From Pantanalinema sp. (GTDB lineage Bacteria > Cyanobacteriota > Sericytochromatia > S15B-MN24 > UBA4093), in NCBI GenBank assembly GCA_036704125.1, contig DATNQI010000019.1:971-64970 (forward strand): 64,000 bases of DNA. Direction: 5' to 3'. Positions 11,056-64,000 of the stretch are shown here, one piece after another; position 1 is the stretch's first letter, and every line of letters starts with the position of its first letter. A program made the position numbers and the translations under genes. Below the pieces are notes generated by a model. The model saw nothing but the letters and a program-made list of their open reading frames with translations. It did not search any database and was not told where the DNA came from.

Positions 11056-12369
11056 ATGTTCATTCACATGATCGGCCTGAGCCATCGGACGGCGCCGGTC
11101 GCGGTGCGCGAGCGCGTCGCCGTGCCGGCGCACGGCCTGCAGGGGGCCCTCTCGGATCTCCTGGCGGATCCCGGCGTCCTCGAGGGGGTGATCCTCTCGA
11201 CCTGCAACCGGACGGAGGTCTACGCGGTCACGGCGGATCCATCGCTCGGCATCGAGGCCCTGCGCCGCTTCGCGGCGCGCGGCGGTGCCGACGCGGGGGG
11301 CTTCGAGGCGCGCGCCCAGGGCGAGGCCGTCCTACACCTCATGCGGGTCGCCGCGGGGCTCGAGTCCCAGCTGCTGGGCGAGCACCAGATCCTCGCCCAG
11401 ATCAAGGAGGCTCTCGCGGCCGCGCAGCACCAGCGCGCCGCCGGCGCCATCCTGGATGCGCTCTTTCGCTTCGCGCTCAGCGCGGGCAAGCGCGCACGAT
11501 CCCAGACCGAGATCGCGCGCGGGGCCGTCTCGGTCTCGGGGGCCGCCATCCACCTGGCGCGCGAGCATTTCGGCTCGCTGCGGGGCCGCGCCATCCTCAT
11601 CCTCGGCAGCGGCAAGATGGGCGAGCTCGCAGCCCGCCACCTCGCGGGCTCGGGGCTCGATCGGATCTACGTCGCCAGCCGCACGCAGGGGGCGGCCCGG
11701 CGCCTCGCCGAGGCGACGGGCGGCGAGGTGGTCTCCTTCTTCGCCCTGGACGAGGTCCTCGCCCGGGTGGACGTCCTGGTGTGCTGCACCGGGGCGCCCC
11801 ATCACGTGCTCTCGGCCTCGGACCTCGCGGGCCTTCACGCGCGCCGGGGCGGTCGCGAGCTGGTGCTCCTGGACCTCTCCATGCCGCGGAACCTGGATCC
11901 CGCCATCGCGGATCTGCCCGGCATGCGCCTGTGGGGCCTGGACGACCTCGAGGCGATCGCCCGCGAGCGCCGGCAGGAGCGCGCGGGGGTGGTGAGCGAG
12001 GTGGAGGCCATCCTGGAGGAGGAGCGCGCGGCCTACCTGGCCTGGCTGCGTTACTTCCAGATGAGCCCCGCCATCGCCTCCTTGCGGGACAAGGCCCACC
12101 AGGTCCGCGCCGGCGAGCTGGAGCGCTTCCTGGACAAGTACGCCGAGGCCTTCTCGGGCGATCAGCGCCGCCTGATCGAGGAGCTGAGCCAGGCCATCGT
12201 CAACAAGCTCCTGCACGGCCCCCTCTCGCGCCTGCGGGGCATGAGCGCGCAGGAGCAGCGGCAGCACGTCGGGACCTTGCAGGACCTGTTCGACCTTCCG
12301 GTCGAGGACTTCGCCGTGCACTACCGGCGGCGGCTCGTCGCGCGCCATGACGCCCTTCCCTCGCCCTAA
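11056..12369 (+). CDS. hemA: glutamyl-tRNA reductase
   Basis: HemA N-terminus (MIGLSHRTAPVAVRE…STCNRTEVY), an NADP-binding GxGxxG (LILGSGKMGE) and a C-terminal dimerisation helix. GAGGAGGA precedes ATG 11056. Confidence 0.9.
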   Translation: MFIHMIGLSHRTAPVAVRERVAVPAHGLQGALSDLLADPGVLEGVILSTCNRTEVYAVTADPSLGIEALRRFAARGGADAGGFEARAQGEAVLHLMRVAAGLESQLLGEHQILAQIKEALAAAQHQRAAGAILDALFRFALSAGKRARSQTEIARGAVSVSGAAIHLAREHFGSLRGRAILILGSGKMGELAARHLAGSGLDRIYVASRTQGAARRLAEATGGEVVSFFALDEVLARVDVLVCCTGAPHHVLSASDLAGLHARRGGRELVLLDLSMPRNLDPAIADLPGMRLWGLDDLEAIARERRQERAGVVSEVEAILEEERAAYLAWLRYFQMSPAIASLRDKAHQVRAGELERFLDKYAEAFSGDQRRLIEELSQAIVNKLLHGPLSRLRGMSAQEQRQHVGTLQDLFDLPVEDFAVHYRRRLVARHDALPSP

Positions 12370-51610: not shown

Positions 51611-52995
51611 GCATCCGCCTGCGTCTCACCCTGCTCTTCGTCGCGCTGCTCGCGGCGGTGGGACTCGCCCGCAGCATCGCGGTCCTGGAGGGCCTCTCGA
51701 ACACCCTGCACGGCATCGCCCTTTCCGACGCGCACAGCCGGATCCGGCAGCTTCGGGACTACCTGGCGCTGCGCCATGCCGAAGAGCACCGCCTGGGACG
51801 CAACCTGCGCCTCGACCGCCCCGAGGCCCTCCCCCGCGCCTTCTCCGACGACGGCATGCTGCTTCAGCTCACGGCCCCCGACGGCCGGATCCTCAACCGC
51901 AGCGCCAACCTGCGCGCCTCGCGCCTGCCGCTCCCGGCGCATGCGGGGAGCCGGGCGGTCTCGCTCTCGCTCGGCGGCACGTCGCCGGAGCGCCTGCTCC
52001 TGGTCTCCGAGCCCCTGCAGCTGGGGCACCATGGCCCGGCCGGCTGGATCCAGGCGGCCTACCCGCTCGACGCCATCGACCGCACCACGCACCGCATGAC
52101 CCTGGTCGAGCTGGGGGTGGGCCTGGCCTCGCTCGTCCTGGCCTTCGCGGTCGGCTACTTCTTCGCGGGGCGGGCCCTGTCGCCGGTCGCCGCCATCACC
52201 TCCGAGGTGGGGCGCCTGACCCGGCGCGACCTGCATCGCCGCCTGGAGGTGGGCCCTGCGCCCCACGACGAGATCGATCGCCTCACCCTCACCTTCAACG
52301 GCCTGTTCGATCGCCTCGAGGAGAGCTTCGAGGCGCAGCGGCGCTTCGTGGCGGACGCCTCGCACGAGCTGCGCAGCCCCCTGACCGCCATCCACGGCCA
52401 TCTGCAATTGATCCGGCGCCGGGGCGACGCGAATCCCGAGCAGGCCAAGGTCTGGCTCGAGACCGCCTCGCGCGAGGTGGGGCGCCTGATCCGCCTGGTC
52501 AACGAGCTCCTGGACCTGGCGCGGGCCGAGGGACAGGCGCTGATCGCAGCCCCCGCGCCGGTGGAGCTCGGGGCGCTCGCGCGCGAGGTGGCCCTCCAGT
52601 TCCAGGTGATCGCCCCGCGGATCCGCGCGGAGGTGGGCGCACCGCTCTGGGTGCGCGGGGACGAAGATCGCCTGCGCCAGGTGCTGATCAACCTGGCGGA
52701 CAACGCCGTGCGCGCCACCCGCGACGGAGGCGACGTGCGGATCGAGGTCAGGCGCGAGCACGACTCGGCCCTCGTCGTGGTCGCGGACACCGGCGGCGGC
52801 ATCCCGCCCGAGCGCCTGGAGCGGATCTTCGATCGCTTCTACCGGCTGGATGCCGCCCGCGGCAGGGAGCGCGGGGGGGCGGGTCTGGGCCTGTCCATCG
52901 CCCAGGCCATCGTGCGGGCCCACCGGGGCGAGATCTCGGTCGAGAGTGCCCCGGGGCAGGGGGCGCGCTTCACCATCCGCCTGCCGCTGGCCTGA
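51607..52995 (+). CDS. sensor histidine kinase (HAMP + HisKA + HATPase_c), cognate of the OmpR-family regulator
   Basis: Probable TTG start overlapping the regulator stop. Two TM segments, H-box ADASHELRSPLTAI and N/G boxes (…LINLADNAVRAT…GGAGLGLSIA…). Confidence 0.75.
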   Translation: MSIRLRLTLLFVALLAAVGLARSIAVLEGLSNTLHGIALSDAHSRIRQLRDYLALRHAEEHRLGRNLRLDRPEALPRAFSDDGMLLQLTAPDGRILNRSANLRASRLPLPAHAGSRAVSLSLGGTSPERLLLVSEPLQLGHHGPAGWIQAAYPLDAIDRTTHRMTLVELGVGLASLVLAFAVGYFFAGRALSPVAAITSEVGRLTRRDLHRRLEVGPAPHDEIDRLTLTFNGLFDRLEESFEAQRRFVADASHELRSPLTAIHGHLQLIRRRGDANPEQAKVWLETASREVGRLIRLVNELLDLARAEGQALIAAPAPVELGALAREVALQFQVIAPRIRAEVGAPLWVRGDEDRLRQVLINLADNAVRATRDGGDVRIEVRREHDSALVVVADTGGGIPPERLERIFDRFYRLDAARGRERGGAGLGLSIAQAIVRAHRGEISVESAPGQGARFTIRLPLA

Positions 52996-53041
52996 GAGGC
53001 GCCTGATCGAAGCGAGCGCCGGGTGGTATCATGGCCTCCTT

Positions 53042-55453
53042 ATGGCAATGGACGAAAAAACACTGAAGATGCTCGAGTGGCCCCGCGTCGTGGAGCTGCT
53101 CTGTGAACGCGCCACCACCGAGTCGGGCAAGGACCGCTGCAGGGCGATCGAGATTCACACCGACCTGGACGCCGTCTCCCACGCGCTGCGCCTGACCACC
53201 GAGGCCAGAGGGCTCTTGATCGAGACCCAGACCTTCCCCATGGGCGGCCTCCAGGATCTGCGCGGCGCCATCCGCCGGCTGGACCAGGGCGCGGACCTCG
53301 ACGGCCACGAGCTGACGGCGATCGCGCACACGCTGGTCGCCGCGCGCCGGCTCAAGAGCTTCCTCTCGGATCACGACGAGGAGTTCCCGGCGCTCGCCGA
53401 GCTCGGCGTGCCGATCGTGCCCCTGCCCAAGCTGACCGACGAGATCCTGCGCTGCTTCGACCCCTCGGGGGAGGTGGCCGATCACGCGAGCCCCGCGCTC
53501 GGCGCCATCCGCCGCAAGCTGCACGAGACCCAGGGCGAGATCCGCACCCGTCTCCAGCGCATGCTGCGCTCGCACGCGAACGCGCTCCAGGAGACGATCA
53601 TCACCATGCGCGGCGAGCGCTTCGTGCTGCCCGTGCGCTCGGACGCCAAGGGCCAGGTGCCGGGCATCGTCCACGACCAGTCCTCGACCGGCATGACCCT
53701 CTTCATCGAGCCCATGGCCGTGGTCGACCTGAACAACCAGGTCACCAAGGCCCACCTGGACGAGCGGGACGAGATCGCCCGCATCCTCGCGCGCCTGACC
53801 CAGCTGGTCTCGGCCAACAGCGAGGAGATCCGCTGGACCATGGAGGCCGTCGCCGAGATCGACTTCACCTACGCCAAGGCCCGGCTCTCCATGGCCCTCG
53901 ACGGCCACCACCCGCGCCTCGACCGCGAGGGCGCCACCGTCGTGTACGGCGCGCGCCACCCCCTCCTGGTGGCACGGGGGCTCTCGAGCGAGACCAAGGG
54001 CGCCAAGGTCGTCCCCATCGACGTGGGGGTGGGCGATCGCCACCAGGTGGTCGTCATCACCGGCCCCAACACCGGCGGCAAGACCGTCACCCTCAAGACC
54101 CTGGGCCTGGTCACCCTCATGACCCAGGCTGGCCTCCACCCGCCGGTCGCGCCCGGCTCCCAGGTGGCGGTGTTCCGCAAGGTCTTCGCCGACATCGGCG
54201 ACGAGCAGAGCCTCCAGCAGAACCTCTCGACCTTCTCGGGTCACATGCGCAACATCATCCGGATCACGACCTATGCCGACCACCGGACGCTGGTGCTCCT
54301 GGACGAGCTGGGCGCGGGCACCGATCCCCAGGAGGGGGCGGCCCTGGCGCGGGCCCTCATCGACGTGTTCATCGAGCGCGGCAGCCGGCTGGTGGCGACC
54401 ACCCACTACGGCGAGCTGAAGCTCTTGGCCTACGAGAAGTCAGGGATCATCAACGCCTCGGTGGAGTTCGACGTCAAGAGCCTCTCGCCGACCTACCGCC
54501 TCTTGATGGGCGTGCCGGGCCAGTCCAACGCCATCACCATCGCCTCGGCCCTCGGCCTTCCCCCCGTGGTGGCGGCCTCGGCCAAGGAGTACCTGAGCCG
54601 GGGCAAGGACGATGCCGCCGAGGTCATCTCGCGCCTCGAGGCCGAGCAGCACGCCGCCGCGGTCGCCCGCGCCGACGCGGACCGCAAGCTGGCCGAGGCC
54701 GAGCGCATGCGCGCCGAGTACGAGGCCAAGCTCGCCAACTGGAGCCAGGAGCGCAAGGACCTGCGCGAGAAGGCCCGCGACGCCCTCGACCAGGAGCTCG
54801 AGTCCGCCCGCGCGGAGATCGCCTCGGTCACCCGCGAGCTCCAGGGCGCCCGGACCGCCCAGACCGCCCAGAAGGCCCACGACCGGATCAGCAAGCTCAA
54901 GCACCGCATGCAGAAGACGGAGCGCCCGGCCAACACCGTCAACGCGCGCACGCTGCTGGTGGGCGATCGCGTCTTCCTGCCGCGCCTCAACCAGACGGGG
55001 ATCGTCCAGTCCCTGCCGGACGCGAGCGGCGAGGTCGTGCTCCAGATCGGGATCATGAAGGTGACGGCCAGGCTCGCCGAGCTGCAGATCGAGCCCAAGG
55101 GCGGTGACAAGGGCGCAAAGGCGGCCTCCAAGGCAAGCGCGCCGGAGCCCCAGGCCTTCAAGCCCTCCAGGAAGGCCGGCCGCTCGGGCGCCGAGGAGCC
55201 CGGCCGCCAGGCCGGGATGGAGATCGATCTGCGCGGCATGATGGTTCACGAGGCGATCACCGAGCTCGAAAACTTCCTCGACACGGCCATGGAGGCCGAT
55301 CTCAAGAGCGTCTGGATCATCCACGGCGCCGGTACCGGTGCGCTGCGCAAGGGGATCCGCGATCACCTGAGGACCAGCCCCTACGCCGCCTCGTTCCGAC
55401 CGGGCGGGCACGGCGAGGGCGGCGACGGGGTCACGGTCGTCCAGCTTTCTTGA
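53042..55453 (+). CDS. mutS2: endonuclease MutS2 (MutS-like ATPase with C-terminal Smr domain)
   Basis: Walker A (GPNTGGKT), the MutS2 core, a coiled-coil, and a C-terminal Smr (…DLRGMMVHEAITELENFLD…IIHGAGTGALRKGIRDHL…). ATG 53048 is an alternative start. Confidence 0.9.
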   Translation: MAMDEKTLKMLEWPRVVELLCERATTESGKDRCRAIEIHTDLDAVSHALRLTTEARGLLIETQTFPMGGLQDLRGAIRRLDQGADLDGHELTAIAHTLVAARRLKSFLSDHDEEFPALAELGVPIVPLPKLTDEILRCFDPSGEVADHASPALGAIRRKLHETQGEIRTRLQRMLRSHANALQETIITMRGERFVLPVRSDAKGQVPGIVHDQSSTGMTLFIEPMAVVDLNNQVTKAHLDERDEIARILARLTQLVSANSEEIRWTMEAVAEIDFTYAKARLSMALDGHHPRLDREGATVVYGARHPLLVARGLSSETKGAKVVPIDVGVGDRHQVVVITGPNTGGKTVTLKTLGLVTLMTQAGLHPPVAPGSQVAVFRKVFADIGDEQSLQQNLSTFSGHMRNIIRITTYADHRTLVLLDELGAGTDPQEGAALARALIDVFIERGSRLVATTHYGELKLLAYEKSGIINASVEFDVKSLSPTYRLLMGVPGQSNAITIASALGLPPVVAASAKEYLSRGKDDAAEVISRLEAEQHAAAVARADADRKLAEAERMRAEYEAKLANWSQERKDLREKARDALDQELESARAEIASVTRELQGARTAQTAQKAHDRISKLKHRMQKTERPANTVNARTLLVGDRVFLPRLNQTGIVQSLPDASGEVVLQIGIMKVTARLAELQIEPKGGDKGAKAASKASAPEPQAFKPSRKAGRSGAEEPGRQAGMEIDLRGMMVHEAITELENFLDTAMEADLKSVWIIHGAGTGALRKGIRDHLRTSPYAASFRPGGHGEGGDGVTVVQLS

Positions 55454-55640: not shown

Positions 55641-55715
55641 CGTGCCCCGTATAAACACCTTGTGAACAGCGGGCTTGAATGAGAGCGGGCCCGGTGAGAC
55701 GTGAGGAGAGCGAAA

Positions 55716-56498
55716 ATGAGCAAGGTCGTCGGTTACATCTGGATGCACCCCGAAGCCATCAACGCCGAGAAGGTTCGCGCCGAGCGCCATGCGATCGAGG
55801 CCTACTGCGCGGCTCACAACCTCGCCCTGGACGGGATGCAGGTCGATGCCGGCGCCCTGGGCAACGCCCTCGAGCGGCCCGAGATGAAGGCGATCGCCGA
55901 GAAGTCCGAGATCACCGTCGTCGTCGCCTCGATGGTCAGCCTCGGCCGCCGCTTCCACGACGTCGCTACCGTGCTCGCCGAGTTCAACCACAAGGACATC
56001 CGCTTCATCAGCGTCGAGGAGAACATCGACACCGGCCGCCCCGACGGCCAGCAGCTCCTCAAGCTCTTCGTGACCATTCCCCAGGTCGCCAGCTGGGTCC
56101 GCGCCCCCAAGCCCGCCGCCGAGACCAAGGTCTTCGTCCGCAACCGCGAGGTGCTCCACAACGGCGGCACCTGCCCCTACGGCTACACTCTCGACGAGAT
56201 GACCAACCAGTTCGTCGTCAGCCGCACCGAGGCCGCCGTGATCCAGCGCATCTTCCACGAGCGCGCCGCGGGCCGCAGCCTTCGCCAGATCGCCAACGAC
56301 CTCACCCGTGATGCGATCGCCACCAAGCGCGGCGGCCGCTGGCAGGCCAACACCGTTAAGACCATCCTCGAGAACATCTTCTACACCGGCGACTACCAGT
56401 GCCAGGGCCGCCTCTACCCCAACGACCACGAGGCCGTCATCTCCAAGGACCTCTTCGCCCAGGTCAACTCGGCCCAGGAGATCCTCCAGGTCTGCTAG
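55716..56498 (+). CDS. serine-recombinase-like protein lacking the catalytic serine, truncated (resolvase-like domain + recombinase domain only)
   Basis: The resolvase fold is conserved (…VVVASMVSLGRRFHDV…DIRFISVEENIDTGRPDGQQLL…), but the nucleophile motif (G/A)YxRVS(T/S)xxQ is replaced by VGYIWMHPE. A large-serine-recombinase 'Recombinase' domain follows (GGTCPYGY…IANDL…KRGGRWQANTV…IFYTGDY), and there is no zinc-ribbon/coiled-coil C-terminus. GAGGAGAG precedes ATG 55716. Confidence 0.65.
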   Translation: MSKVVGYIWMHPEAINAEKVRAERHAIEAYCAAHNLALDGMQVDAGALGNALERPEMKAIAEKSEITVVVASMVSLGRRFHDVATVLAEFNHKDIRFISVEENIDTGRPDGQQLLKLFVTIPQVASWVRAPKPAAETKVFVRNREVLHNGGTCPYGYTLDEMTNQFVVSRTEAAVIQRIFHERAAGRSLRQIANDLTRDAIATKRGGRWQANTVKTILENIFYTGDYQCQGRLYPNDHEAVISKDLFAQVNSAQEILQVC

Positions 56499-56536: not shown

Positions 56537-56577
56537 CCCTCGGGGGGCCGACTCAGTCGGCCCCCCGAGGGTTTTAT
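56537..56577 (+). terminator. rho-independent terminator
   Basis: ccctcggggggccgac-tca-gtcggccccccgaggg followed by ttttat; preceded by the direct repeats acgctctctc x2. Confidence 0.85.
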
Positions 56578-56639
56578 GGCGCCCGTTCGCTGAAGTCGAA
56601 GGCCCCGCGACACTGCCGCGGGGCCTTCGGGGCACGGGG

Positions 56640-57275
56640 TCACGCCGCTGGCGCGGGAGGCCTGTCGTTTTTCTCCGAGCGTGCGAGCAGCGCGAAGTCG
56701 ATGCACAGCTCCTTGCCCGAGGCCCAGACGCCCCGGAAGCCCCCGATGACGGCCGCTGCGATCGACGCCCCCCAGGTGGCCAGGGGGCGAGGGACGTTGA
56801 AGCTCCCGAGCTGCAGCCGCTCGATCTGGAAGTTGAAGGTGCTCTCTGCGGTCTGGCGTGGGGCGACGTCGCTGCGCAGCGGGATCTTCCAGCCGAAGAG
56901 GTCGAGCTCGCCCTGGATCTGGAGCTTCTTGTCGTCGGCCACGTGGACCGCCAGGGACTTCACCAGGCCGCCCGAGGGGATCGCGACCTTCTCGCAGACG
57001 TCGGTGGTGACGATGCCGTACTTGGCCTGGCCGGACACCGTCGCGTGTCCTGCATCGGTGAAATCCACCCGGAAGTCTCGCCCGTGCTCACCCGCCAGGA
57101 CGTCGGCGACCTTGAGCTCCACCTGCACGGGGATGAAGCCGAGGACATCCTTGCGGACGCTCAGATTTCCTTGCGGGTTGAGGGCGATGCCGCCGCCAGC
57201 CTGCACCGGGCCGGGCTCCGGCTCGGAGGCGCGGCGCGAGGGCTGGGGGGTGCCGGGGCGGATGGGAGGGATCAT
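56640..57275 (-). CDS. hypothetical protein with C-terminal hydrophobic helix; last gene of the FHA/kinase operon
   Basis: A 211-aa ORF with typical codon usage, a Pro-rich N-terminus and a C-terminal TM-like segment (ASIAAAVIGGFRGVWASG). Confidence 0.45.
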   Translation of the reverse strand: MIPPIRPGTPQPSRRASEPEPGPVQAGGGIALNPQGNLSVRKDVLGFIPVQVELKVADVLAGEHGRDFRVDFTDAGHATVSGQAKYGIVTTDVCEKVAIPSGGLVKSLAVHVADDKKLQIQGELDLFGWKIPLRSDVAPRQTAESTFNFQIERLQLGSFNVPRPLATWGASIAAAVIGGFRGVWASGKELCIDFALLARSEKNDRPPAPAA

Positions 57276-57385
57276 GGCGCGCTCCTCTGGAGTGGGGGCT
57301 CCATGGTTATCGGCAGCCCGGCCCGAGAAGCTGCTAAAAAGCGCCGGGGCGTTCCTTGAAAGGAACGCCCCGGCGCAGCGAGGTT

Positions 57386-57871
57386 CTAGGCTTCGAGGAG
57401 CTTGAAGAAGGTCTTGCCCATGACGATCTCGTCACCGGCCTTGACCAGCTGCGGGCTGCCCGGCATCAGTCGCGGGCCGCGGTTGACGTAGGTGCCGTTC
57501 AGGCTGCCGAGGTCCTCGACGAAGTACTCGCCCTCCTCGACGAAGAGGCGCGCGTGCTTGCGCGAGATCTTGGCCTCGGCGTCGTCCGAGGTCAGATCGA
57601 CCTCGGGGAAGGATCCGCCGTCCGGATCCCAGCGGCCGACATGGGTCTCGCCCGAGATCTCGAGAACGAACTCCTTGCCGACGGTCCCGCCGCGGGTGAT
57701 GACCAGCTTGGCGCGGTAGCTCGCGGGTGCTCCGAGCGTTCCCGGCTGGGGGTACGAGGCGGCGACATCCGAGGCGGGGACGCTCGAAACGAGCTCCAGC
57801 TTCGCGCCGCACTCGTCGCAGAACTGGATGCCCGACTGGTTTTCGTGGCTACAAGCCGTGCAGACGCTCAT
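57386..57871 (-). CDS. zinc-ribbon + FHA domain protein
   Basis: N-terminal CxxC…CxxC (CTACSHEN…CDECG) and a C-terminal FHA (…GRWDPDGG…DLTSDD…SRKHARLF…GSLNGTYVN). Confidence 0.8.
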   Translation of the reverse strand: MSVCTACSHENQSGIQFCDECGAKLELVSSVPASDVAASYPQPGTLGAPASYRAKLVITRGGTVGKEFVLEISGETHVGRWDPDGGSFPEVDLTSDDAEAKISRKHARLFVEEGEYFVEDLGSLNGTYVNRGPRLMPGSPQLVKAGDEIVMGKTFFKLLEA

Positions 57872-57881
57872 CGCTTTCCCC

Positions 57882-58241
57882 CTAGGCCTGGAAGAACTTG
57901 AAGAAGGTCTTGCCCATGACGATCTCGTCGCCGTCCTTGATGGCCTGGGGGCTGCCGGGCAGGAGGCGCGGGCCGCGGTTGACGTAGGTGCCGTTGAGGC
58001 TGCCGAGGTCCTCGACGAAGTACTCGCCGTTCTCGATGAAGATCCGCGCGTGCTTGCGCGAGATCTTGGCCTCGGGGTCGTCCGACGTCAGGTCCACCTC
58101 GGGGAAGGCGCCGCCGTCCGGGTCCCAGCGGCCGATCAGCGTCTCGCCGCCGGTCTCGACGGCGAACTCCTTGCCCACGGTCCCGCCGCGGGTGATGACC
58201 AGCTTGACCGTGGCGGCGATGGAATTCGTGGTGTCGCTCAT
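57882..58241 (-). CDS. FHA domain protein (tandem paralog of the downstream FHA gene)
   Basis: A stand-alone FHA ~85% identical to the FHA of 57386..57871 (KLVITRGGTVGKEF…ISRKHARIF…GDEIVMGKTFFKF). Confidence 0.8.
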   Translation of the reverse strand: MSDTTNSIAATVKLVITRGGTVGKEFAVETGGETLIGRWDPDGGAFPEVDLTSDDPEAKISRKHARIFIENGEYFVEDLGSLNGTYVNRGPRLLPGSPQAIKDGDEIVMGKTFFKFFQA

Positions 58242-58293
58242 CCTGGGGTTCTCCTCATGAATGCGGTGGGGGGCGAAAGGAAAGAGGTGAGAT

Positions 58294-59955
58294 CTAGGAA
58301 TACTCGGCGAGGTTGACCAGCACGACGGTGATGTTGTCCTCGCCGCCGCGCTGGTTGGCCAGGTTCACCAGCTTGCGGGCCGCGAGGTTGGGCTCGGCGG
58401 CGTTGATGACCACCTCCTGCAGCTCCTCGTCGGAGACGTGGCCCGTGAGGCCGTCGCTGCACAAGAGCAGCCAGTCCCCGATCTTGAGGGGCCGCTGGTA
58501 CAGGTCGACCTCGACGTTCGGGTAGGTGCCGAGCGAGCGATAGATCAGGTTGCGCTGCGGGTGGATCGCCGCCTCCTCGAGGGTGATCTGGCCGATCTCG
58601 ACCAGGCGCCCGACGAGGCTGTGATCGCGCGACACCTTCTCGATGCCCTCGCGGTTGATCAGGTAGGCGCGACTGTCGCCCACGTGCCCGATGAAGACGT
58701 TCTGGCCGAAGACCAGAGCGGCGGTGACGGTGGTGCCCATCCCTGAGAGGTCCGCGTTGTGGCGGCCGGTCTCGTAGATGCGGGAGTTCGCGTTCTTGAT
58801 GGCCTGCTGCATGGCCGCGCGGATCTCCTGGGCCGGGTCGTCCACCCCCTCGTTGAGGTTGACCAGCGCCTCCTGGACGTGCGAGGTCACGGCGTCCACG
58901 GCCAGAGCGCTCGCGATCTCGCCCGCGTTGACCCCGCCCATGCCGTCGGCGACCACGTACAGCCCGAGCCCCGACTGGGTGGACTGGGTGGTGAAGGTCA
59001 GGTCGAAGACCGCGAGGCTGTCCTCGTTGCCCGTCCGGACGATGCCCACGTCCGAGCAGTGGCCGGCCCGGCGCTGGGGGTTGTTGATCAGGGCGAGCAG
59101 GTGGGCCTTGAGCTCCTGCACCGTCTCGAAGCGATCGTCGGGATCGGGCGCGAGCATCTTGCGGACGATCCGCTCGATCTGCGGGTGGATCGCCTCGTTG
59201 AACGCGCTGAGGTCCGGCAGGTTGAAGCGCGTCTCCTCGTTGGGCCAGTAGCTCTCGGGGGAGTTGCCGGTGAGCAGGTAGTGCCACAGGGCGCCCAGGG
59301 CGTAGATGTCCGAGCGCTCGTCGACCTTGCCGCTCAGGTACCCGAACTGCTCGGGCGGCGAGTAGCCGGGCGTCGAGTCGGTGGGGACGGGGCAGGGCAG
59401 GATGGCGGCGCGGTGGAAGCCCGTGAGGCGCACCCGCTGGAAGTCGGGGGTGACGACCACGTAACGGGGCTGCAGGTCCAGGTGCAGGATCTGCCGGCGG
59501 TGGAGCTGGCCGATGGACTGGCACAGCTGGATCATCCAGTCAAGGGACTGCTGGACGCCGATGGCGGTGCCGTTGCGCAGGAGGTAGGCCAGGTCGCGCC
59601 CCTCGAGCTGCTCGATCACCAGGTAGGCGCGATCGCTCGCCTTGAAGATGTCGAGGGCCTTGACCACGGTCGGGTAGGAGACCGAGCGCAGGATCAGGAA
59701 CTCGTTCTGCCAGGGGTTGTCCCAGGCCTTCTCCGCCCACTCGCTCTCGGGCAGGGCGCTGGTGCTGGCCTCGTCCTCCTTCTCCTTGACGATGACCACG
59801 AAGCCCGTGGCCTGGTCGATCGCCCGGTAGAGGTTGGCGCCGTTCTTGTACTCGAGGAAGCGCTCGACCGCGTAGCGGTTGGCGAGCAGGGTGTCCGCTT
59901 CGAGCGGCGCAAGGGGGCTGGTCGCGGAGCCGCGGTCGGAACGAGGCGAGGTCAT
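58294..59955 (-). CDS. pseudokinase-like domain fused to PP2C (PPM-family) Ser/Thr phosphatase
   Basis: The N-terminal kinase-fold domain has degenerate motifs: there is no GxGxxG loop, the catalytic loop reads HLDLQP instead of HRDLKP, and DFG is replaced by TGF. The C-terminal PP2C domain has an intact metal-binding motif set (VADGMGG, HVGDSRAY, LLCSDGL, GGEDNITVV). AAGGAG lies 8 nt before ATG 59953-59955. Confidence 0.75.
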   Translation of the reverse strand: MTSPRSDRGSATSPLAPLEADTLLANRYAVERFLEYKNGANLYRAIDQATGFVVIVKEKEDEASTSALPESEWAEKAWDNPWQNEFLILRSVSYPTVVKALDIFKASDRAYLVIEQLEGRDLAYLLRNGTAIGVQQSLDWMIQLCQSIGQLHRRQILHLDLQPRYVVVTPDFQRVRLTGFHRAAILPCPVPTDSTPGYSPPEQFGYLSGKVDERSDIYALGALWHYLLTGNSPESYWPNEETRFNLPDLSAFNEAIHPQIERIVRKMLAPDPDDRFETVQELKAHLLALINNPQRRAGHCSDVGIVRTGNEDSLAVFDLTFTTQSTQSGLGLYVVADGMGGVNAGEIASALAVDAVTSHVQEALVNLNEGVDDPAQEIRAAMQQAIKNANSRIYETGRHNADLSGMGTTVTAALVFGQNVFIGHVGDSRAYLINREGIEKVSRDHSLVGRLVEIGQITLEEAAIHPQRNLIYRSLGTYPNVEVDLYQRPLKIGDWLLLCSDGLTGHVSDEELQEVVINAAEPNLAARKLVNLANQRGGEDNITVVLVNLAEYS

Positions 59956-59972
59956 GGCTCGTGGCTCCTTTC

Positions 59973-61190
59973 TTAACGGGCGAGCATCCACCAGAGGCCG
60001 GCCGAGATCACGAGGGCGGCCGCGACGGCAGCCCCCGCGATCAAGAGGCGCCTGGGGAGGGTGGGGCGCTCGGTCCGGCCGGTGGCCTTGGGACGACCGA
60101 GGTGGCCCGTTGCGGCCCGGTAGATCTGGCTGGACGTGGAGGCGTGGTGGGCGGCGATGTAGTTGCGGCAGTGGGGGCAGAACTGGCGGCCCTTGGAGAT
60201 CTGCTCGCCGCAGTGGGGGCAGGTGCGCACGGCGTTGCTCGCCTCGCCTCCCACGCGGATCAGGGCGACCAGCATGTCGTCGGCACTGGCGTAGCGCTTC
60301 TCGATGTCGGAGTCGAGGGAGCGCATGACCAACTCCTCGGTCGCGTCCGTGACCTCGGGGTTGAGCTGGCGCACGGGCGGGAACGAGAAGGGGGCCTCGT
60401 TCTGAGGGTCGCGCCCGGTGAGCATGTAGTGCATGGTCGCCCCCAGCGCGTAGAGGTCGGTGCGGGGCTCGACCTGGCCGCGGTACTGCTCGGGGGGCGC
60501 GTAGCCCTGGGTGCCGATCATGGTGCCGCGGGCCGTGGGGTTGAAGAAGCGCGCGATGCCGAAGTCGACCAGGTAGATCTTGCCGAACTCGGTGAGCATG
60601 AGGTTGGCGGGCTTCATGTCCCGGAAGATGATGGGCGGCTTCTGGTGGTGGAGGTAGCTCAGCACGTCGCAGACCTGGATGGCCCAGCCGATCACGCTCT
60701 TCTCGTCGAAGGGGTTGTTGGACTGCTCGCAGATCCGGGCCTCCAGGTCCGAGCCGTTGATGTACTCCATCACGATGTAGTGGCGGTTCGACTCGGTGAA
60801 GCGGTCGAAGACCTCGGGGATGGAGTTGTGCTTGAGGCTGGCGAGCATGTCCGCCTCGCGGTAGAAGTTCTGCATCGCCGTCTCGCGCTGCTCGCCATCG
60901 GCGAAGTGGTCGAGCATCTCCTTGACGACGCAGACCTTGCTCGAGAAGCGGGTGTCGTTGGCCAGGTAGACGGCGCCCATCCCCCCCTGCCCGACGAGCT
61001 GGGTGATGCGGTACCGGTCCTGCAGCAGGGTCGAGGGCGACAGCAGGCCGCTCGCGCCCACCGAGCCCGCGGGCTGGGTGACGTGCGAGCTCGAGTGGGT
61101 CGCGGTCACCGCCCCCTTGAGGGGCTTGCCGCAGTCGCAGCAGAAGCGGTTCTCGGCGTTGTTATCCGTCTGGCAGTTGGAGCAGATCAA
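59973..61190 (-). CDS. Ser/Thr protein kinase flanked by N- and C-terminal zinc ribbons, C-terminal TM anchor
   Basis: Active Hanks motifs are present (GQGGMGAVY, VCVVKEM, FRDMKPANLML, DFG, APPE). It has an N-terminal CxxC…CxxC, a C-terminal CPHCG…CPHCR and a terminal TM helix. The start is probably TTG 61188-61190, with GGAGG ~11 nt upstream. Confidence 0.8.
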   Translation of the reverse strand: MICSNCQTDNNAENRFCCDCGKPLKGAVTATHSSSHVTQPAGSVGASGLLSPSTLLQDRYRITQLVGQGGMGAVYLANDTRFSSKVCVVKEMLDHFADGEQRETAMQNFYREADMLASLKHNSIPEVFDRFTESNRHYIVMEYINGSDLEARICEQSNNPFDEKSVIGWAIQVCDVLSYLHHQKPPIIFRDMKPANLMLTEFGKIYLVDFGIARFFNPTARGTMIGTQGYAPPEQYRGQVEPRTDLYALGATMHYMLTGRDPQNEAPFSFPPVRQLNPEVTDATEELVMRSLDSDIEKRYASADDMLVALIRVGGEASNAVRTCPHCGEQISKGRQFCPHCRNYIAAHHASTSSQIYRAATGHLGRPKATGRTERPTLPRRLLIAGAAVAAALVISAGLWWMLAR

Positions 61191-61268
61191 CTTAGGGGGA
61201 ACCTCCGCAGCCGCGGGGTGCCGAGTGGCGCCCGTCGGGACAGCTTGGGCATGGTCTTGGGCCAGGAG

Positions 61269-62597
61269 CTACCATTTGAACAAGTTTAGCACAAATCCGA
61301 GGTTGTTCGTCTGGCCGGGAGCCCCGCCCCCGGGCGGTTCCCCGGTGATGTAACCGGTGCTCCATGCCGAGGTGTCGCCAATGGCGAGCACCAGGCCCTG
61401 AGCGTAGGGCTGGGCGACGGCGATCGCAGGCCCGCCGAGCGTGGCGGCGACGCGGTATCCGCCGTCGCCCGCGCGCGCGATGGCGCGCGCCGTGGGCGGG
61501 GCGAAGATCGAGCAGGCCTCGTAGAAGGTGACGCCGCCCGGCATGGCATGCGGGGCGGGCAGCTCGGGGGCGGCCACCTTGATCCAGCCGGGCTGGGCGG
61601 AGTTCGCGGTGGTGCGGACCAGGTCGGGGCAGAAGGCGAGGCCGAAGGGCCGGGCGATGCGGTTGAGCGCCTCGGGCGAGTAGTCGAGCGCGCCGCCCCA
61701 CTCGCCCATCAGCACGAGGGTGCCGCCCGAGGCGACGAAGTCCTGGAGGCGGCTTGCGGTCGCATCGGTCGCGAAGGCCGCGCGGGGGCTCGCGACCACC
61801 CGCACATCGGCTGCGTCCGAGACGCTGGTCGAGACGGTGAAGTCGGTGCCGAGCGCCGACTTGAGCGCACCCAGGGCGGTGCCGACGGAGGTTGCGCCGA
61901 AGGGCTGGGCGTCATTCTCGAAGACGACGATGGGCTTGGTGGCCTGGCGCGCGAGGACGACGCTGCCGAGGGCGAGGTCCGTGCCGTTCAGCGCAACCTG
62001 CCGGGTCGAGGGGGCGTGGAGCGCCTTGCGGATGCTGAGGGTGTGCGCTCCGGCTCCCAGGCCCTCGAGGGTGAAGCCCCCGTCGGCCCCCGAGAAGGTC
62101 CAGCTCTCGCCCGCGGCGACGCGGGCCCCCTCGATGGGGCCACCGGGCCCCGAGACCGTGCCGCTGATCGTGCCCGCCTGGGGGGTGAGCTCGACGGTGG
62201 TCTCGAGGGGGGTCTTGGGGTCGATCGAAAGACCCGTGACCAGGCGGGTCGCGTGGCCCGGGGCCGAGACCCGCAGCGCGTAGGTGCCGGCCTCCAGCGG
62301 GTCGAAGCGCATGGGAAGCGCCGAATCGGTGACGCCCCAGGCGGGAGTCGGCCCGACGAGGCTCACGGTCGCGCCCGCGATCCGATCCTGGGTGCCCGCC
62401 CGGCGGACGTTGACGCTCAGGATGCCGTTGACCAGGGCCGTGCCGCTGACGAAGACCTGGCGGCTGAGCGTGGGGCTCGGAGCCGGGCCGGGAGGCTGGG
62501 GCGGATCGGGAGTGGGCGCCGGGGGTTGCCCGGGGAAGAGGAAGCAACCCGAGAGGGACAGGGTGGCGAGCATCCCGACGAGGATCGTTCGGCGCAT
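61269..62597 (-). CDS. lipoprotein with tandem carboxypeptidase-regulatory-like (CarbopepD_reg) beta-sandwich domains and an uncharacterised C-terminal domain
   Basis: ATG 62595-62597 overlaps the stop of the S8 gene (ATGA). It has a lipobox (LSLSGC) and two 'ATVSL…G…TDS.G.F…L..GTY.L.VSAPG' type units. The track ORF 61269..63659 is a frame artefact spanning two genes. Confidence 0.55.
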   Translation of the reverse strand: MRRTILVGMLATLSLSGCFLFPGQPPAPTPDPPQPPGPAPSPTLSRQVFVSGTALVNGILSVNVRRAGTQDRIAGATVSLVGPTPAWGVTDSALPMRFDPLEAGTYALRVSAPGHATRLVTGLSIDPKTPLETTVELTPQAGTISGTVSGPGGPIEGARVAAGESWTFSGADGGFTLEGLGAGAHTLSIRKALHAPSTRQVALNGTDLALGSVVLARQATKPIVVFENDAQPFGATSVGTALGALKSALGTDFTVSTSVSDAADVRVVASPRAAFATDATASRLQDFVASGGTLVLMGEWGGALDYSPEALNRIARPFGLAFCPDLVRTTANSAQPGWIKVAAPELPAPHAMPGGVTFYEACSIFAPPTARAIARAGDGGYRVAATLGGPAIAVAQPYAQGLVLAIGDTSAWSTGYITGEPPGGGAPGQTNNLGFVLNLFKW

Positions 62598-64000
62598 CAC
62601 GGGGTGCCTCCTGCGGCGCTCCACTGGAGCGCCTTGAGCGGGTCGACCAGGCCGTAGCCGGTCTCGTTGCTGAAGCCGCCGGCGGAAAGGGGCTTTGCCG
62701 TCGCGATCAGGCGGGCGCGGACCTGGGAGGGGCTGAGCGACTGGCCGCGGGCCCTGGCGTCGGCGATGACGAGGGCCGCCACGCCGCTCACCACCGGGGT
62801 CGCCATGGAGGTGCCGCTCAGGACGCCGTAGTTCAGGGGAAGGCGCCCCGACTCGTAGAAGCTGTAGGTCGGCAGCGTCGAGTAGATCCCGTCGTTGAAC
62901 TTGCTGGCGTCGCCGACGCCGCTGCTGCCCCCGGGGGCGACCAGCGAGACCTCGGGGCCGCGGTTGCTGTAGCCGGGGATGGAGGTTGCGGAGCCCTCCT
63001 TGCCCGAGGTGGCCCCGACGCAGATCACCCCCGCGTAGGCCGCCGGGTAGTAGACCGCTCCGTAGCCGTTGCCCGAGGCGATCACGACGGTGACCCCCTT
63101 GGCCATGTCGTAGGCCAGCACGTCGGCCAAGAGCTGGCTGGGCTCGGGACCGCCCACCGAGAGGTTGATGACGTCGGCCCCCGCGTCGGCCGCGTCCTTG
63201 AGGCCCTGGGCGATCGCGAAGTCCGAGCCCGAGCCGTCGGCGCGCATGACCTTGACCGGCAGGATGGAGACGCCGGGGGCGACCCCCACCATGCCGCCGT
63301 TGTCGCCCGCGGCCCCCAGGATCCCGGCCACGTGGGTGCCGTGGCCGTTGCCGTCCTTGAAGGCGTAGGGGGTGTTGCCGGTGCCGAGGGTGGTGTCGCC
63401 CTCCACCTCGTCGATATAGAAGGGGGCGCCCTCCGAGGTGCTCGCGACGCGCGTGGAGAGCTTGGGATAGTTCTCGAAGATCCCCGCCGGCACCCTGGCG
63501 ATGTTGGGGGCGAGATCCGGGTGGCTCGCGTCCACGCCGGTGTCCACCACGGCGACCGTCACGCCCTTGCCGGGCGGCGAGGCCTGCGAGGCGGTGGCGA
63601 AGCTCGTGGAGTTCCAGGCCGCGTTCATGTCGATCCCGCGCTGTGCGCGCAGGTACCACTGGTACTGGCTGCTGGCCTCGCTCGGAGCGTAGGCCTGGGT
63701 CCGGCGCACGTAGTTGGGCTCGGCGTACTCGAAGGCCTCATGGCGGCTCAGGGCACTGCGCAGGGCCGCCGCGTCGCCCTGGATGGTCCAGCGCTCGGTG
63801 TCGGGCAGGATGGCGTCGACCTGCTGGACGCCGTGGGTGAGCCGCAGGGCCTCGCGTTCGCTTTGGCCGGTCTCGGCCTTGAACTTGACGATGAGCTCAC
63901 CTTCGACCTGGGGGCTCGCCGAGCGCGAGGCCCCGGGGGCGGTGCCCCAGAAGGCCTGACAGCCGGTGACGGCCAAGGTGAGGGCGAGTGCCGCCCCGAA
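62597..64000 (-). CDS. subtilisin-like serine protease (peptidase S8) with I9 propeptide; 5' end beyond window
   Basis: The D/H/S triad is present (VVDTGVDASHPD, HGTHVAGILG, GTSMATPVVSG). Its signal peptide continues past position 64000 (…ALALTLAVTGCQAF). Confidence 0.85.
   Translation of the reverse strand, partial: FGAALALTLAVTGCQAFWGTAPGASRSASPQVEGELIVKFKAETGQSEREALRLTHGVQQVDAILPDTERWTIQGDAAALRSALSRHEAFEYAEPNYVRRTQAYAPSEASSQYQWYLRAQRGIDMNAAWNSTSFATASQASPPGKGVTVAVVDTGVDASHPDLAPNIARVPAGIFENYPKLSTRVASTSEGAPFYIDEVEGDTTLGTGNTPYAFKDGNGHGTHVAGILGAAGDNGGMVGVAPGVSILPVKVMRADGSGSDFAIAQGLKDAADAGADVINLSVGGPEPSQLLADVLAYDMAKGVTVVIASGNGYGAVYYPAAYAGVICVGATSGKEGSATSIPGYSNRGPEVSLVAPGGSSGVGDASKFNDGIYSTLPTYSFYESGRLPLNYGVLSGTSMATPVVSGVAALVIADARARGQSLSPSQVRARLIATAKPLSAGGFSNETGYGLVDPLKALQWSAAGGTP

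Follow-up and report, generated by a model that had tools for sequence, protein, structure and literature searches.

A six-gene cluster linking a kinase, a pseudokinase-phosphatase fusion and FHA proteins to an envelope protease pair in the Sericytochromatia lineage

Gene content and organization of the cluster

The DNA analyzed here (hereafter the window) is a stretch of 64,000 nucleotides from contig DATNQI010000019.1 of a metagenome-assembled genome (MAG) labeled Pantanalinema sp. (GCA_036704125.1), and our subject is a group of minus-strand genes near its end that encodes the components of a Ser/Thr phosphorylation system next to a protease. Domains were called on the translations of open reading frames (ORFs) in the window using Pfam, the curated cut-offs of NCBIfam, and PADLOC profiles. 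The G+C content of the region is ~68-74%, which gives rise to many spurious overlapping ORFs, and Pfam picked out among them a single co-directional series of six genes. In the order of transcription, these encode an S8 subtilase lipoprotein (62597..>64000; Peptidase_S8, E 2e-58; Fervidolysin_NPro-like, 2e-6), a partner lipoprotein of 442 amino acids (61269..62597), a Hanks-type Ser/Thr kinase of 405 amino acids (59973..61190; Pkinase, E 6e-39; Zn_Ribbon/DZR), a 553-amino-acid fusion of a pseudokinase to a PP2C phosphatase (58294..59955; Pkinase 1e-23 and PP2C 2e-15), a short FHA protein of 119 amino acids, FHA1 (57882..58241; FHA 5e-16), and a zinc-ribbon (ZnR) FHA protein of 161 amino acids, ZnR-FHA2 (57386..57871; FHA 4e-14 and DZR/Zn_Ribbon_1). 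The contexts of related loci (given L numbers) were taken from exact-protein look-ups and from a metagenome scan seeded by a pseudokinase-specific alignment, and tblastn and blastp served for the comparison.

The junctions within the series are short. The reading frames of the S8 protein and its partner meet at gTGATG and overlap by 1 nt (or by 4 nt, as GTGA), rather than at the ATGA given in the original prediction. The partner lipoprotein and the kinase are separated by 78 nt, the kinase and the fusion by 17 nt that include an AAGGAG ribosome-binding site, the fusion and FHA1 by ~52 nt, and FHA1 and ZnR-FHA2 by 10 nt. The ribosome-binding site indicates that the fusion starts at the ATG at 59955 and not at the GTG at 59991, and the 553 amino acids counted from this ATG are also the length of its homologues. 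A terminator scan detected none within the six-gene block and a strong intrinsic terminator after ZnR-FHA2 (57376-57341, minus strand), with a 16-bp stem (13 G-C pairs), a 4-nt loop, and a TTTTT tail; the 96%-identical locus L001 has a terminator of its own at the equivalent place. Judging from the short or overlapping junctions and the positions of the terminators, the six genes are probably co-transcribed as one operon. Seven co-oriented genes had been proposed at first, and this holds for six of them, as the seventh ORF (56640-57275) is cut off by the terminator. The operon is also not contained wholly within the window, because the S8 ORF leaves it at its end and the clusters of relatives extend upstream. 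The cluster is likely to continue past position 64000, with a content that may be gauged from L001 and the other relatives.

The kinase is composed of a Zn ribbon, the kinase domain, a second Zn ribbon (CPHC...CPHC, residues 324-341), a linker, and a C-terminal transmembrane (TM) helix. Hydropathy places the hydrophobic segment at residues ~377-405, where the protein ends without an extracytoplasmic domain. It scores 134.5 bits against Pfam Pkinase (cut-off 31.7), as expected of a Hanks-type kinase, and its canonical motifs are all intact (GQGGMG, VVKE, FRDMKPAN, DFG, and GTQGYAPPE). The description of this protein as a TM-anchored Hanks-type kinase that carries two zinc ribbons is therefore well founded, and from its motifs it is predicted to be active. 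In the kinase orthologues of a sister clade (L084, L085, L093, and L094), which are 855-891 amino acids long (L084 7391-9958; L085 7329-10004), the TM helix is followed by a periplasmic Peripla_BP_6/ANF_receptor domain. The position of this domain proves that the C-terminus of the kinase faces the periplasm, and its presence shows that the lineage can take a predicted extracytoplasmic input, of an amino-acid or peptide type. The kinase ends at the TM helix both in the clade of the window and in an outgroup of ~50% identity, and since the outgroup lacks the sensor domain, its gain in the sister clade is more parsimonious than its being ancestral. A juxtamembrane TGR motif of the kinase was considered as a site for FHA binding; of the first seven orthologues to be aligned, six have it, but it is missing in L091 and L092, and the idea was rejected.

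The N-terminal half of the fusion has a kinase fold that does not qualify as an active Hanks kinase and is accordingly classed as a pseudokinase: it has no GxGxxG, its catalytic loop reads HLDLQPRY, with the Lys and Asn lost, and TGF stands in place of DFG. This degeneration is common to fusion homologues down to 35% identity (alignment A1), while a T-P-G-Y-S-P-P-E loop is retained in the pseudokinase domain. The PP2C metal-binding motifs (RxxNED, DGMGG, GDSR, DG, and DN) are invariant in the same alignment, and residues 301-547 belong to the Stp1/IreP type of PP2C (NCBIfam NF033484, Stp1_PP2C_phos; 266.6 bits, cut-off 230). The motif loss in one half and the intact motifs in the other confirm a PP2C fused to a degenerate kinase-like domain. 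The best relatives of the fusion in the Protein Data Bank (PDB) are Stp1/PstP phosphatases and PknB/StkP kinases, which occur there as separate chains, and among these relatives no solved chain covers both halves. When a profile of the pseudokinase domain was compared with 1.84 billion representatives clustered at 50%, there was one specific match (P0081) and the rest were multi-kinase proteins. A single specific representative at this level of clustering indicates that the pseudokinase family of Sericytochromatia is narrow.

Both FHA proteins score above the PF00498 cut-off of 20.7 bits (59.4 and 53.1), and with the DZR/Zn_Ribbon_1 match this agrees with the prediction of two FHA proteins, one of which carries a zinc ribbon. 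All FHA orthologues keep the residues that bind phosphothreonine (Arg/Ser/His/Asn; GR, SRKH, and NGT). FHA1 and ZnR-FHA2 are ~83% identical across the FHA domain, and by their sequences they are recent tandem duplicates, of which FHA1 has lost the Zn ribbon. A single FHA gene, of the ZnR-FHA form, is found in L084, L085, and L091, and ZnR-FHA is the ancestral single-copy form. The PDB relatives of ZnR-FHA2 are OdhI/GarA and ArnA, and in NCBIfam FHA1 matches OdhI/FhaB below the threshold. FHA1 starts with MS[DE]T(T/S/P) (58230-58241 in the window), a start that is constant in the orthologues of L001, L082, L083, L089, and L095. By analogy, this acidic-Thr N-terminus recalls the ETTS phospho-switch of OdhI/GarA and is a candidate target of the kinase.

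At the other end of the cluster, the N-terminus of the S8 ORF is cut by the end of the window at 64000. What is visible of it, ...LALTLAVTGCQAF, is a lipobox following a signal peptide, and the same is seen in L001, whose S8 protein is 84% identical. The lipobox indicates that the protease is lipid-anchored; the prediction of a subtilase thus stands on the Peptidase_S8 match, but not that of a freely secreted one. The protein has a Fervidolysin-type prodomain and the catalytic Asp/His/Ser motifs VVDTG, HGTHVAG, and GTSMATP. Membrane-tethered S8 proteases encoded beside an accessory envelope protein are known from the dentilisin PrtP-PrcA-PrcB of Treponema and from the mycosins of type VII secretion systems (T7SS). 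The S8 gene here likewise has an envelope protein for a neighbor, but the partner is a CarboxypepD_reg/DUF4350 lipoprotein, and the top NCBIfam matches both fall below the family cut-offs (mycosin, 179.9 bits against 278.75; PrtP, 107.9 against 300). No EccC/EssC, WXG100, or PrcA/PrcB gene was found in the gene lists of the window-type loci, and with the cognate partner genes missing from the loci, membership in either family was rejected.

In the partner lipoprotein, a lipobox (LSGC) and a linker rich in Pro are followed by two CarboxypepD_reg domains, which form transthyretin-like beta-sandwiches, and by an alpha/beta domain of the DUF4350/GATase1-like kind at the C-terminus; the DUF4350 match in Pfam is weak. 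Its initial description as a carboxypeptidase-regulatory-like lipoprotein was correct. Only 18 homologues were detected, and it is 100% identical to P0121. An AF2 model (pLDDT 73, pTM 0.74) contains the two beta-sandwiches and the alpha/beta domain, and a Foldseek search with this model returned generic Ig-like and pilin/cohesin-like sandwiches together with a GH42 trimerization (GATase1-like) domain, which give no clue to function. The nucleophile-elbow position of the alpha/beta domain reads GEWGG, so that this domain is probably non-catalytic. Because no catalytic residues are evident in the protein or its model, we regard it as a protein that presumably scaffolds or regulates the S8 enzyme. 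Its gene lies directly downstream of the S8 gene in every locus, and one copy is always directly upstream of the kinase.

Conservation of the cluster in related genomes

The block of S8, lipoprotein, kinase, fusion, and FHA genes is found in about nine distinct related loci, in which the fusion is 58-96% identical to that of the window: L001 (96%), L082/L088 (81%), L089 and L095 (both 77%), L091 (75%), L083/L090 (71%), L092 (70%), L084 (64%), and L085/L094 (58%). Chance juxtaposition of the genes, which the original prediction had named as the outcome that would overturn it, is therefore not what the relatives point to. The gap between the lipoprotein and the kinase is ~5-136 nt in these relatives, with the exception of L085, where it is 236 nt. 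Downstream of the block, the window, L001, L083, L089, and L095 have recombinase-like and MutS2 genes, while a TPP enzyme is found in L082, TPR proteins in L084, and other genes in L085. On the upstream side, the block is usually flanked by a gene for an LptD-like protein, with a different arrangement in L082 and L085. Among close homologues of the fusion and of the FHA proteins, most carry the label Candidatus Sericytochromatia. As a side observation, these labels and the G+C content of ~68-74% make the name Pantanalinema sp. look doubtful for the source MAG, which we take to be a Sericytochromatia-like member of the cyanobacterial lineage.

The outgroup of ~50% identity is organized differently, with the kinase and fusion only in L086, L097, and L098, and the fusion alone in L087. 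The absence of the protease pair and the FHA genes there indicates that the signaling core does not need them, that the invariant core is the kinase/fusion pair, and that the FHA and protease genes were added in one sub-clade. The protein sequences also differ in their rates of change: at L084, the S8 protein and the lipoprotein share 37% and 29% identity with those of the window, while the kinase (58%), the fusion (64%), and the FHA protein (76%) are closer. This suggests that the envelope proteins evolve fast and that the cytoplasmic set is constrained. Going by the gene content of these loci, the link to the protease is clade-specific.

Comparison with known systems

To place the cluster among known systems, we compared it with related modules of other phyla. 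A scan of genome contigs seeded with generic PP2C motifs gave loci from Binatia and Chloroflexi, with no Sericytochromatia among the matches listed. Three loci of Binatia and 'delta-proteobacterial' MAGs (L002-L004) encode, in this order, a vWA protein, an FHA protein without a Zn ribbon, a kinase or kinase-FHA protein, a pseudokinase::PP2C fusion that bears a Zn ribbon, and a second kinase, and their kinase domains are 51-56% identical to the kinase of the window. At least ~20 Chloroflexi loci have, one after the other, a kinase (with a beta-propeller), a PP2C, a DnaJ-vWA protein, and a ZnR-FHA protein. A tblastn search with the vWA proteins of Binatia and Chloroflexi gave no match in the window (best E 0.4) and none in the loci of the Sericytochromatia type, while the same queries had matches in at least 26 other loci. 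The combination of vWA, FHA, kinase, and PP2C is known from the DRA0331-0334 operon of Deinococcus, where an FHA/PP2C push-pull acts on the kinases (bioRxiv 10.64898/2026.01.23.701218). In the archaeon Sulfolobus, a zinc-finger FHA protein, ArnA, is paired with a vWA protein, ArnB (PMC6509490), and sets of kinase, PP2C, vWA, and FHA genes also appear in surveys of conflict systems by the Aravind lab (PMC7159879).

The window locus resembles these modules in its combination of Zn ribbon and FHA domain, with a ZnR-FHA protein present here too, and in the co-encoding of FHA, kinase, and PP2C. The Binatia loci also share the pseudokinase::PP2C fusion (38% identity). It differs from them in the absence of the vWA partner, in whose stead there is the S8-lipoprotein pair, and in the placement of the Zn ribbons, which are on the kinase and FHA proteins and not on the fusion. 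By its sequences, the window locus is a vWA-less, protease-linked derivative of this known type of module. The FHA domain has an unusual insert (GRWDPDGGAFPEVDL..DDPEAKISRKHA), and with this insert included its identity between the window (57386-58241) and the Binatia-type loci L002 (6847-7497), L003, and L004 is 62-66%; the fusion encoded with it is only 38% identical. This difference in sequence conservation implies either that the module was transferred horizontally or that the binding partner is strongly conserved.

Fusions of PP2C and a kinase in one polypeptide have been reported in Pseudomonas and Deinococcus (Krupa & Srinivasan 2005, PMC1262709). They are similar to the fusion described here in joining PP2C to a Hanks fold, but the PP2C is N-terminal in them and they are called kinases, whereas here a kinase-like domain comes first, with a degenerate fold, and PP2C follows. 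PknB phosphorylates the pseudokinase of MviN, and this pseudokinase recruits FhaA (PMC12599244, a review). The likeness to this circuit is that a pseudokinase may provide an FHA reader with a phospho-docking platform; the pseudokinase is located on a flippase there and on a phosphatase here. The same 2025 review, which covers bacterial pseudokinase families, contains the word 'PP2C' nowhere in its text and 'phosphatase' once, and mentions no PP2C fusion. In a limited literature search, we did not find descriptions of a pseudokinase-then-PP2C fusion (which is class-wide and also occurs in Binatia), of its pairing with a double-zinc-ribbon, tail-anchored kinase, or of the linkage of a kinase/PP2C/FHA set to a lipoprotein subtilase pair. 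The suggestion that the cluster is a distinct, unrecognized system holds in part: the kinase/PP2C/FHA half is an ordinary module of a known type, the protease pair is tied to it within a single sub-clade, and the locus as a whole is a lineage-bound form of an already known sort of system.

Two well-known settings for such genes, both raised in the original prediction, were considered and rejected. The actinobacterial division cluster FhaA-FhaB-PstP-RodA-PbpA-PknA-PknB also has two FHA proteins, a PP2C, and a membrane-bound Hanks kinase in one operon, but the kinase of the window is tail-anchored with two Zn ribbons, and a protease-lipoprotein pair stands where the cell-wall synthases would be. 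No Pfam match to FTSW_RODA_SPOVE, transpeptidase, or PASTA was found in the genes of the window or in the cluster genes of its relatives, so that RodA/FtsW, a penicillin-binding protein (PBP), and PASTA domains are all missing, and the score with the PknB_PASTA model is 217 (cut-off 450). In the PpkA-PppA-Fha1/TagH pathway, a triad of kinase, PP2C, and FHA controls an envelope machine, the type VI secretion system (T6SS), through threonine phosphorylation. The kinase of the window has no vWA domain and T6SS core genes are not nearby; the two FHA proteins score 43.4 and 33.5 bits against the TagH model TIGR03354 (cut-off 120.25), and no T6SS family of Pfam occurs in the gene lists of any locus examined.

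Neighboring genes

The seventh ORF, orf211 (211 amino acids; 56640-57275, minus strand), had been proposed as a small membrane protein of the operon. It has no TM-like segment by hydropathy and no family match in Pfam, NCBIfam, or PADLOC. It lies past the terminator at 57376-57341 and has another terminator-like hairpin on its other side (~56540-56640). It is absent from L001, where a clean indel of ~740 bp is found, and a homologue of 31% identity occupies the same position in L083/L090. Its membership in the operon was rejected on the terminator, the indel, and the lack of a TM segment, and orf211 is probably a genuine gene of its own whose presence varies. In L086, a 180-amino-acid hydrophobic, non-FHA protein is encoded after the fusion gene (11668-12210), so a small membrane protein may fit the ~50% outgroup, but not the window.

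Further along, on the plus strand, are genes for a serine-recombinase homologue (55701-56498; Resolvase and Recombinase domains in Pfam) and MutS2 (52850-55453). The catalytic Y-x-R-V-S-T of the recombinase is replaced by GYIWMHPE, and the same loss is seen in L001, L083, L089, and L095, always beside MutS2. From these sequences the protein looks domesticated and inactive, and the motif loss and conserved position led us to reject a mobile element here.

Upstream of the S8 gene in relatives (L001 1-5857; L083 1-5924; L084 336-4251; L089 2054-6000) there is an LptD-like protein of ~900-1000 amino acids, a call based on a weak LptD_N match and on its position beside LptF/G in L084. It is followed by a lipoprotein of ~260-290 amino acids without a family (p291) and then by a free-standing protein similar to the Fervidolysin prodomain (NPro). 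As pure speculation, the lipoprotein could be an analogue of LptE. L001 and L083 have the S8-lipoprotein pair in two tandem copies, one of which still abuts the kinase.

Discussion

We lean, if only slightly, towards interpreting the six-gene cluster as a cytoplasmic phosphothreonine switch that is co-transcribed with an envelope protease pair and in which the pseudokinase docks PP2C on the kinase. In this model, the tail-anchored Hanks kinase would autophosphorylate and phosphorylate its partners, and a dedicated Stp1-type PP2C would reverse this phosphorylation. The pseudokinase domain would bring PP2C to the kinase or to its phospho-substrates, acting, by analogy, as a heterodimerization or decoy partner, or it may itself be phosphorylated on its T-P-G-Y-S-P-P-E loop and in this way bring PP2C to its substrate. 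The phosphothreonines produced in this way would be the targets of one or two small FHA proteins, which by binding them would act as relays or as shields. The lipid-anchored S8 protease and its partner would work at the membrane or cell wall, with the partner most likely positioning, regulating, or presenting the substrate. We infer two ways in which proteolysis and the kinase could be coupled: envelope or peptide signals may serve as input to the kinase, an idea suggested by the Peripla_BP_6 domain in the sister clade, or the kinase pathway may govern how strongly the protease pair is expressed or how active it is. In either case, it is plausible that kinase signaling and proteolysis at the envelope are connected.

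Several observations weigh against this interpretation. The kinase of the window has no sensor domain, so that no input is evident, and the docking role of the pseudokinase is proposed by analogy. Related modules in other phyla are paired with a vWA protein and not with a protease, and the ~50% outgroup has the kinase and fusion without an adjacent protease pair or FHA genes. All of the supporting loci belong to one lineage, and as the LptD-like and recombinase-like/MutS2 genes are retained as well in several of these genomes, part of the conservation of the block may be inherited regional synteny.

These observations lead to the alternative that survives best, which is that two unrelated units happen to be neighbors, with the S8-lipoprotein pair forming an envelope or nutrient-scavenging module tied to the upstream outer-membrane genes and the kinase, fusion, and FHA proteins forming an independent switch with other targets. 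We consider this possible, if somewhat doubtful. It would account for the outgroup and for the vWA partners in other phyla, for the very different evolutionary rates of the two halves, for the co-occurrence of the LptD-like, p291, and NPro genes with the S8 pair in L001, L083, L084, L089, L091, and L095, and for the wider gaps before the kinase in the window (78 nt) and L085 (236 nt). However, the two halves are on the same strand and only 5-22 nt apart in L082, L083, L084, L089, and L095, and there is no terminator between them in the window. Their adjacency has also outlasted changes of the upstream flank (L082 and L085) and the downstream flank (L082, L084, and L085), and where the S8-lipoprotein pair has been duplicated, one copy still adjoins the kinase.

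It is less probable, and in our judgment quite unlikely, that the FHA proteins are metabolic regulators of the OdhI/GarA type, which would inhibit, for example, 2-oxoglutarate dehydrogenase or glutamate enzymes unless phosphorylated on MS[DE]T, and which would give the system a metabolic output, perhaps in amino-acid or peptide supply. For both FHA proteins, OdhI/GarA come first among the sub-threshold matches in NCBIfam and in the PDB, one close FHA homologue is labeled 'Oxoglutarate dehydrogenase inhibitor' by its source, the acidic-Thr N-terminus of FHA1 is conserved, and the Peripla_BP_6 sensor on the sister-clade kinases is of an amino-acid-binding type. Nevertheless, the FHA proteins score 54-58 bits against the OdhI/GarA model NF041660 (cut-off 200), and only ~7 residues lie between the MS[DE]T motif of FHA1 and the first strand of its FHA domain. 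We take this linker to be too short for self-binding as in GarA, making such auto-inhibition sterically doubtful, and any interaction of this kind by FHA1 would be in trans. Membership in the OdhI/GarA family was rejected on the score and the linker. In addition, the ancestral FHA copy has a Zn ribbon in place of the MS[DE]T motif, and there is no linked metabolic gene.

An anti-phage or conflict system, with the kinase as an infection sensor or abortive-infection effector (similar to PD-T4-6 or the MADS kinase), the PP2C/pseudokinase as an antidote, and the subtilase as an effector, is very improbable: PADLOC matches to PD-T4-6 (E down to 8e-65), mad6, and 'subtilase', and sub-threshold NCBIfam matches to MADS6 and PglW, bring it to mind, but they do not extend beyond the kinase domain or the S8 catalytic domain, both of them generic, and in NCBIfam the scores fall far short of the cut-offs (MAD6, 119 against 460; PglW, 60 against 990). 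PD-T4-6 is a single-gene system, for which gene context is not decisive by itself. The neighboring recombinase-like gene, the variable presence of orf211, and the kinase/PP2C/vWA/FHA sets of the conflict-system surveys cited above would also fit a role in defense, yet the recombinase homologue lacks the catalytic Ser motif and is conserved beside MutS2, and the cluster has no vWA, NTPase, nuclease, or system partner genes. Furthermore, both proteins of the protease pair are lipoproteins and are exported out of the cytoplasm, and the conserved chromosomal position and high sequence conservation across the lineage are unlike those of defense islands.

Returning to the phosphothreonine switch with its envelope protease pair, it can be taken further. 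The pseudokinase::PP2C proteins could represent an undescribed class of 'self-targeting' phosphatases, each paired with its cognate kinase as a dimer partner or pseudo-substrate, with ArnA/GarA-like FHA proteins reading the switch and, in the Sericytochromatia lineage, the vWA protein replaced by the S8-lipoprotein pair to give proteolysis-coupled envelope signaling. This is a tentative proposal, and as a whole we think it unlikely to be correct.

All of the domains, and the logic of kinase, PP2C, and FHA, are already known, and the locus opens no long-standing question. If the pseudokinase does dock PP2C on the kinase, it would provide a simple, built-in specificity for bacterial Hanks kinases and their few phosphatases, and it would add a function for pseudokinases outside the seven bacterial families reviewed in 2025 (PMC12599244). 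The hosts of the cluster are little-studied, non-photosynthetic relatives of cyanobacteria, and the clade-specific protease link, together with the kinases that carry Peripla_BP_6, may offer a way to ask how envelope and peptide signals enter Ser/Thr signaling in these organisms.

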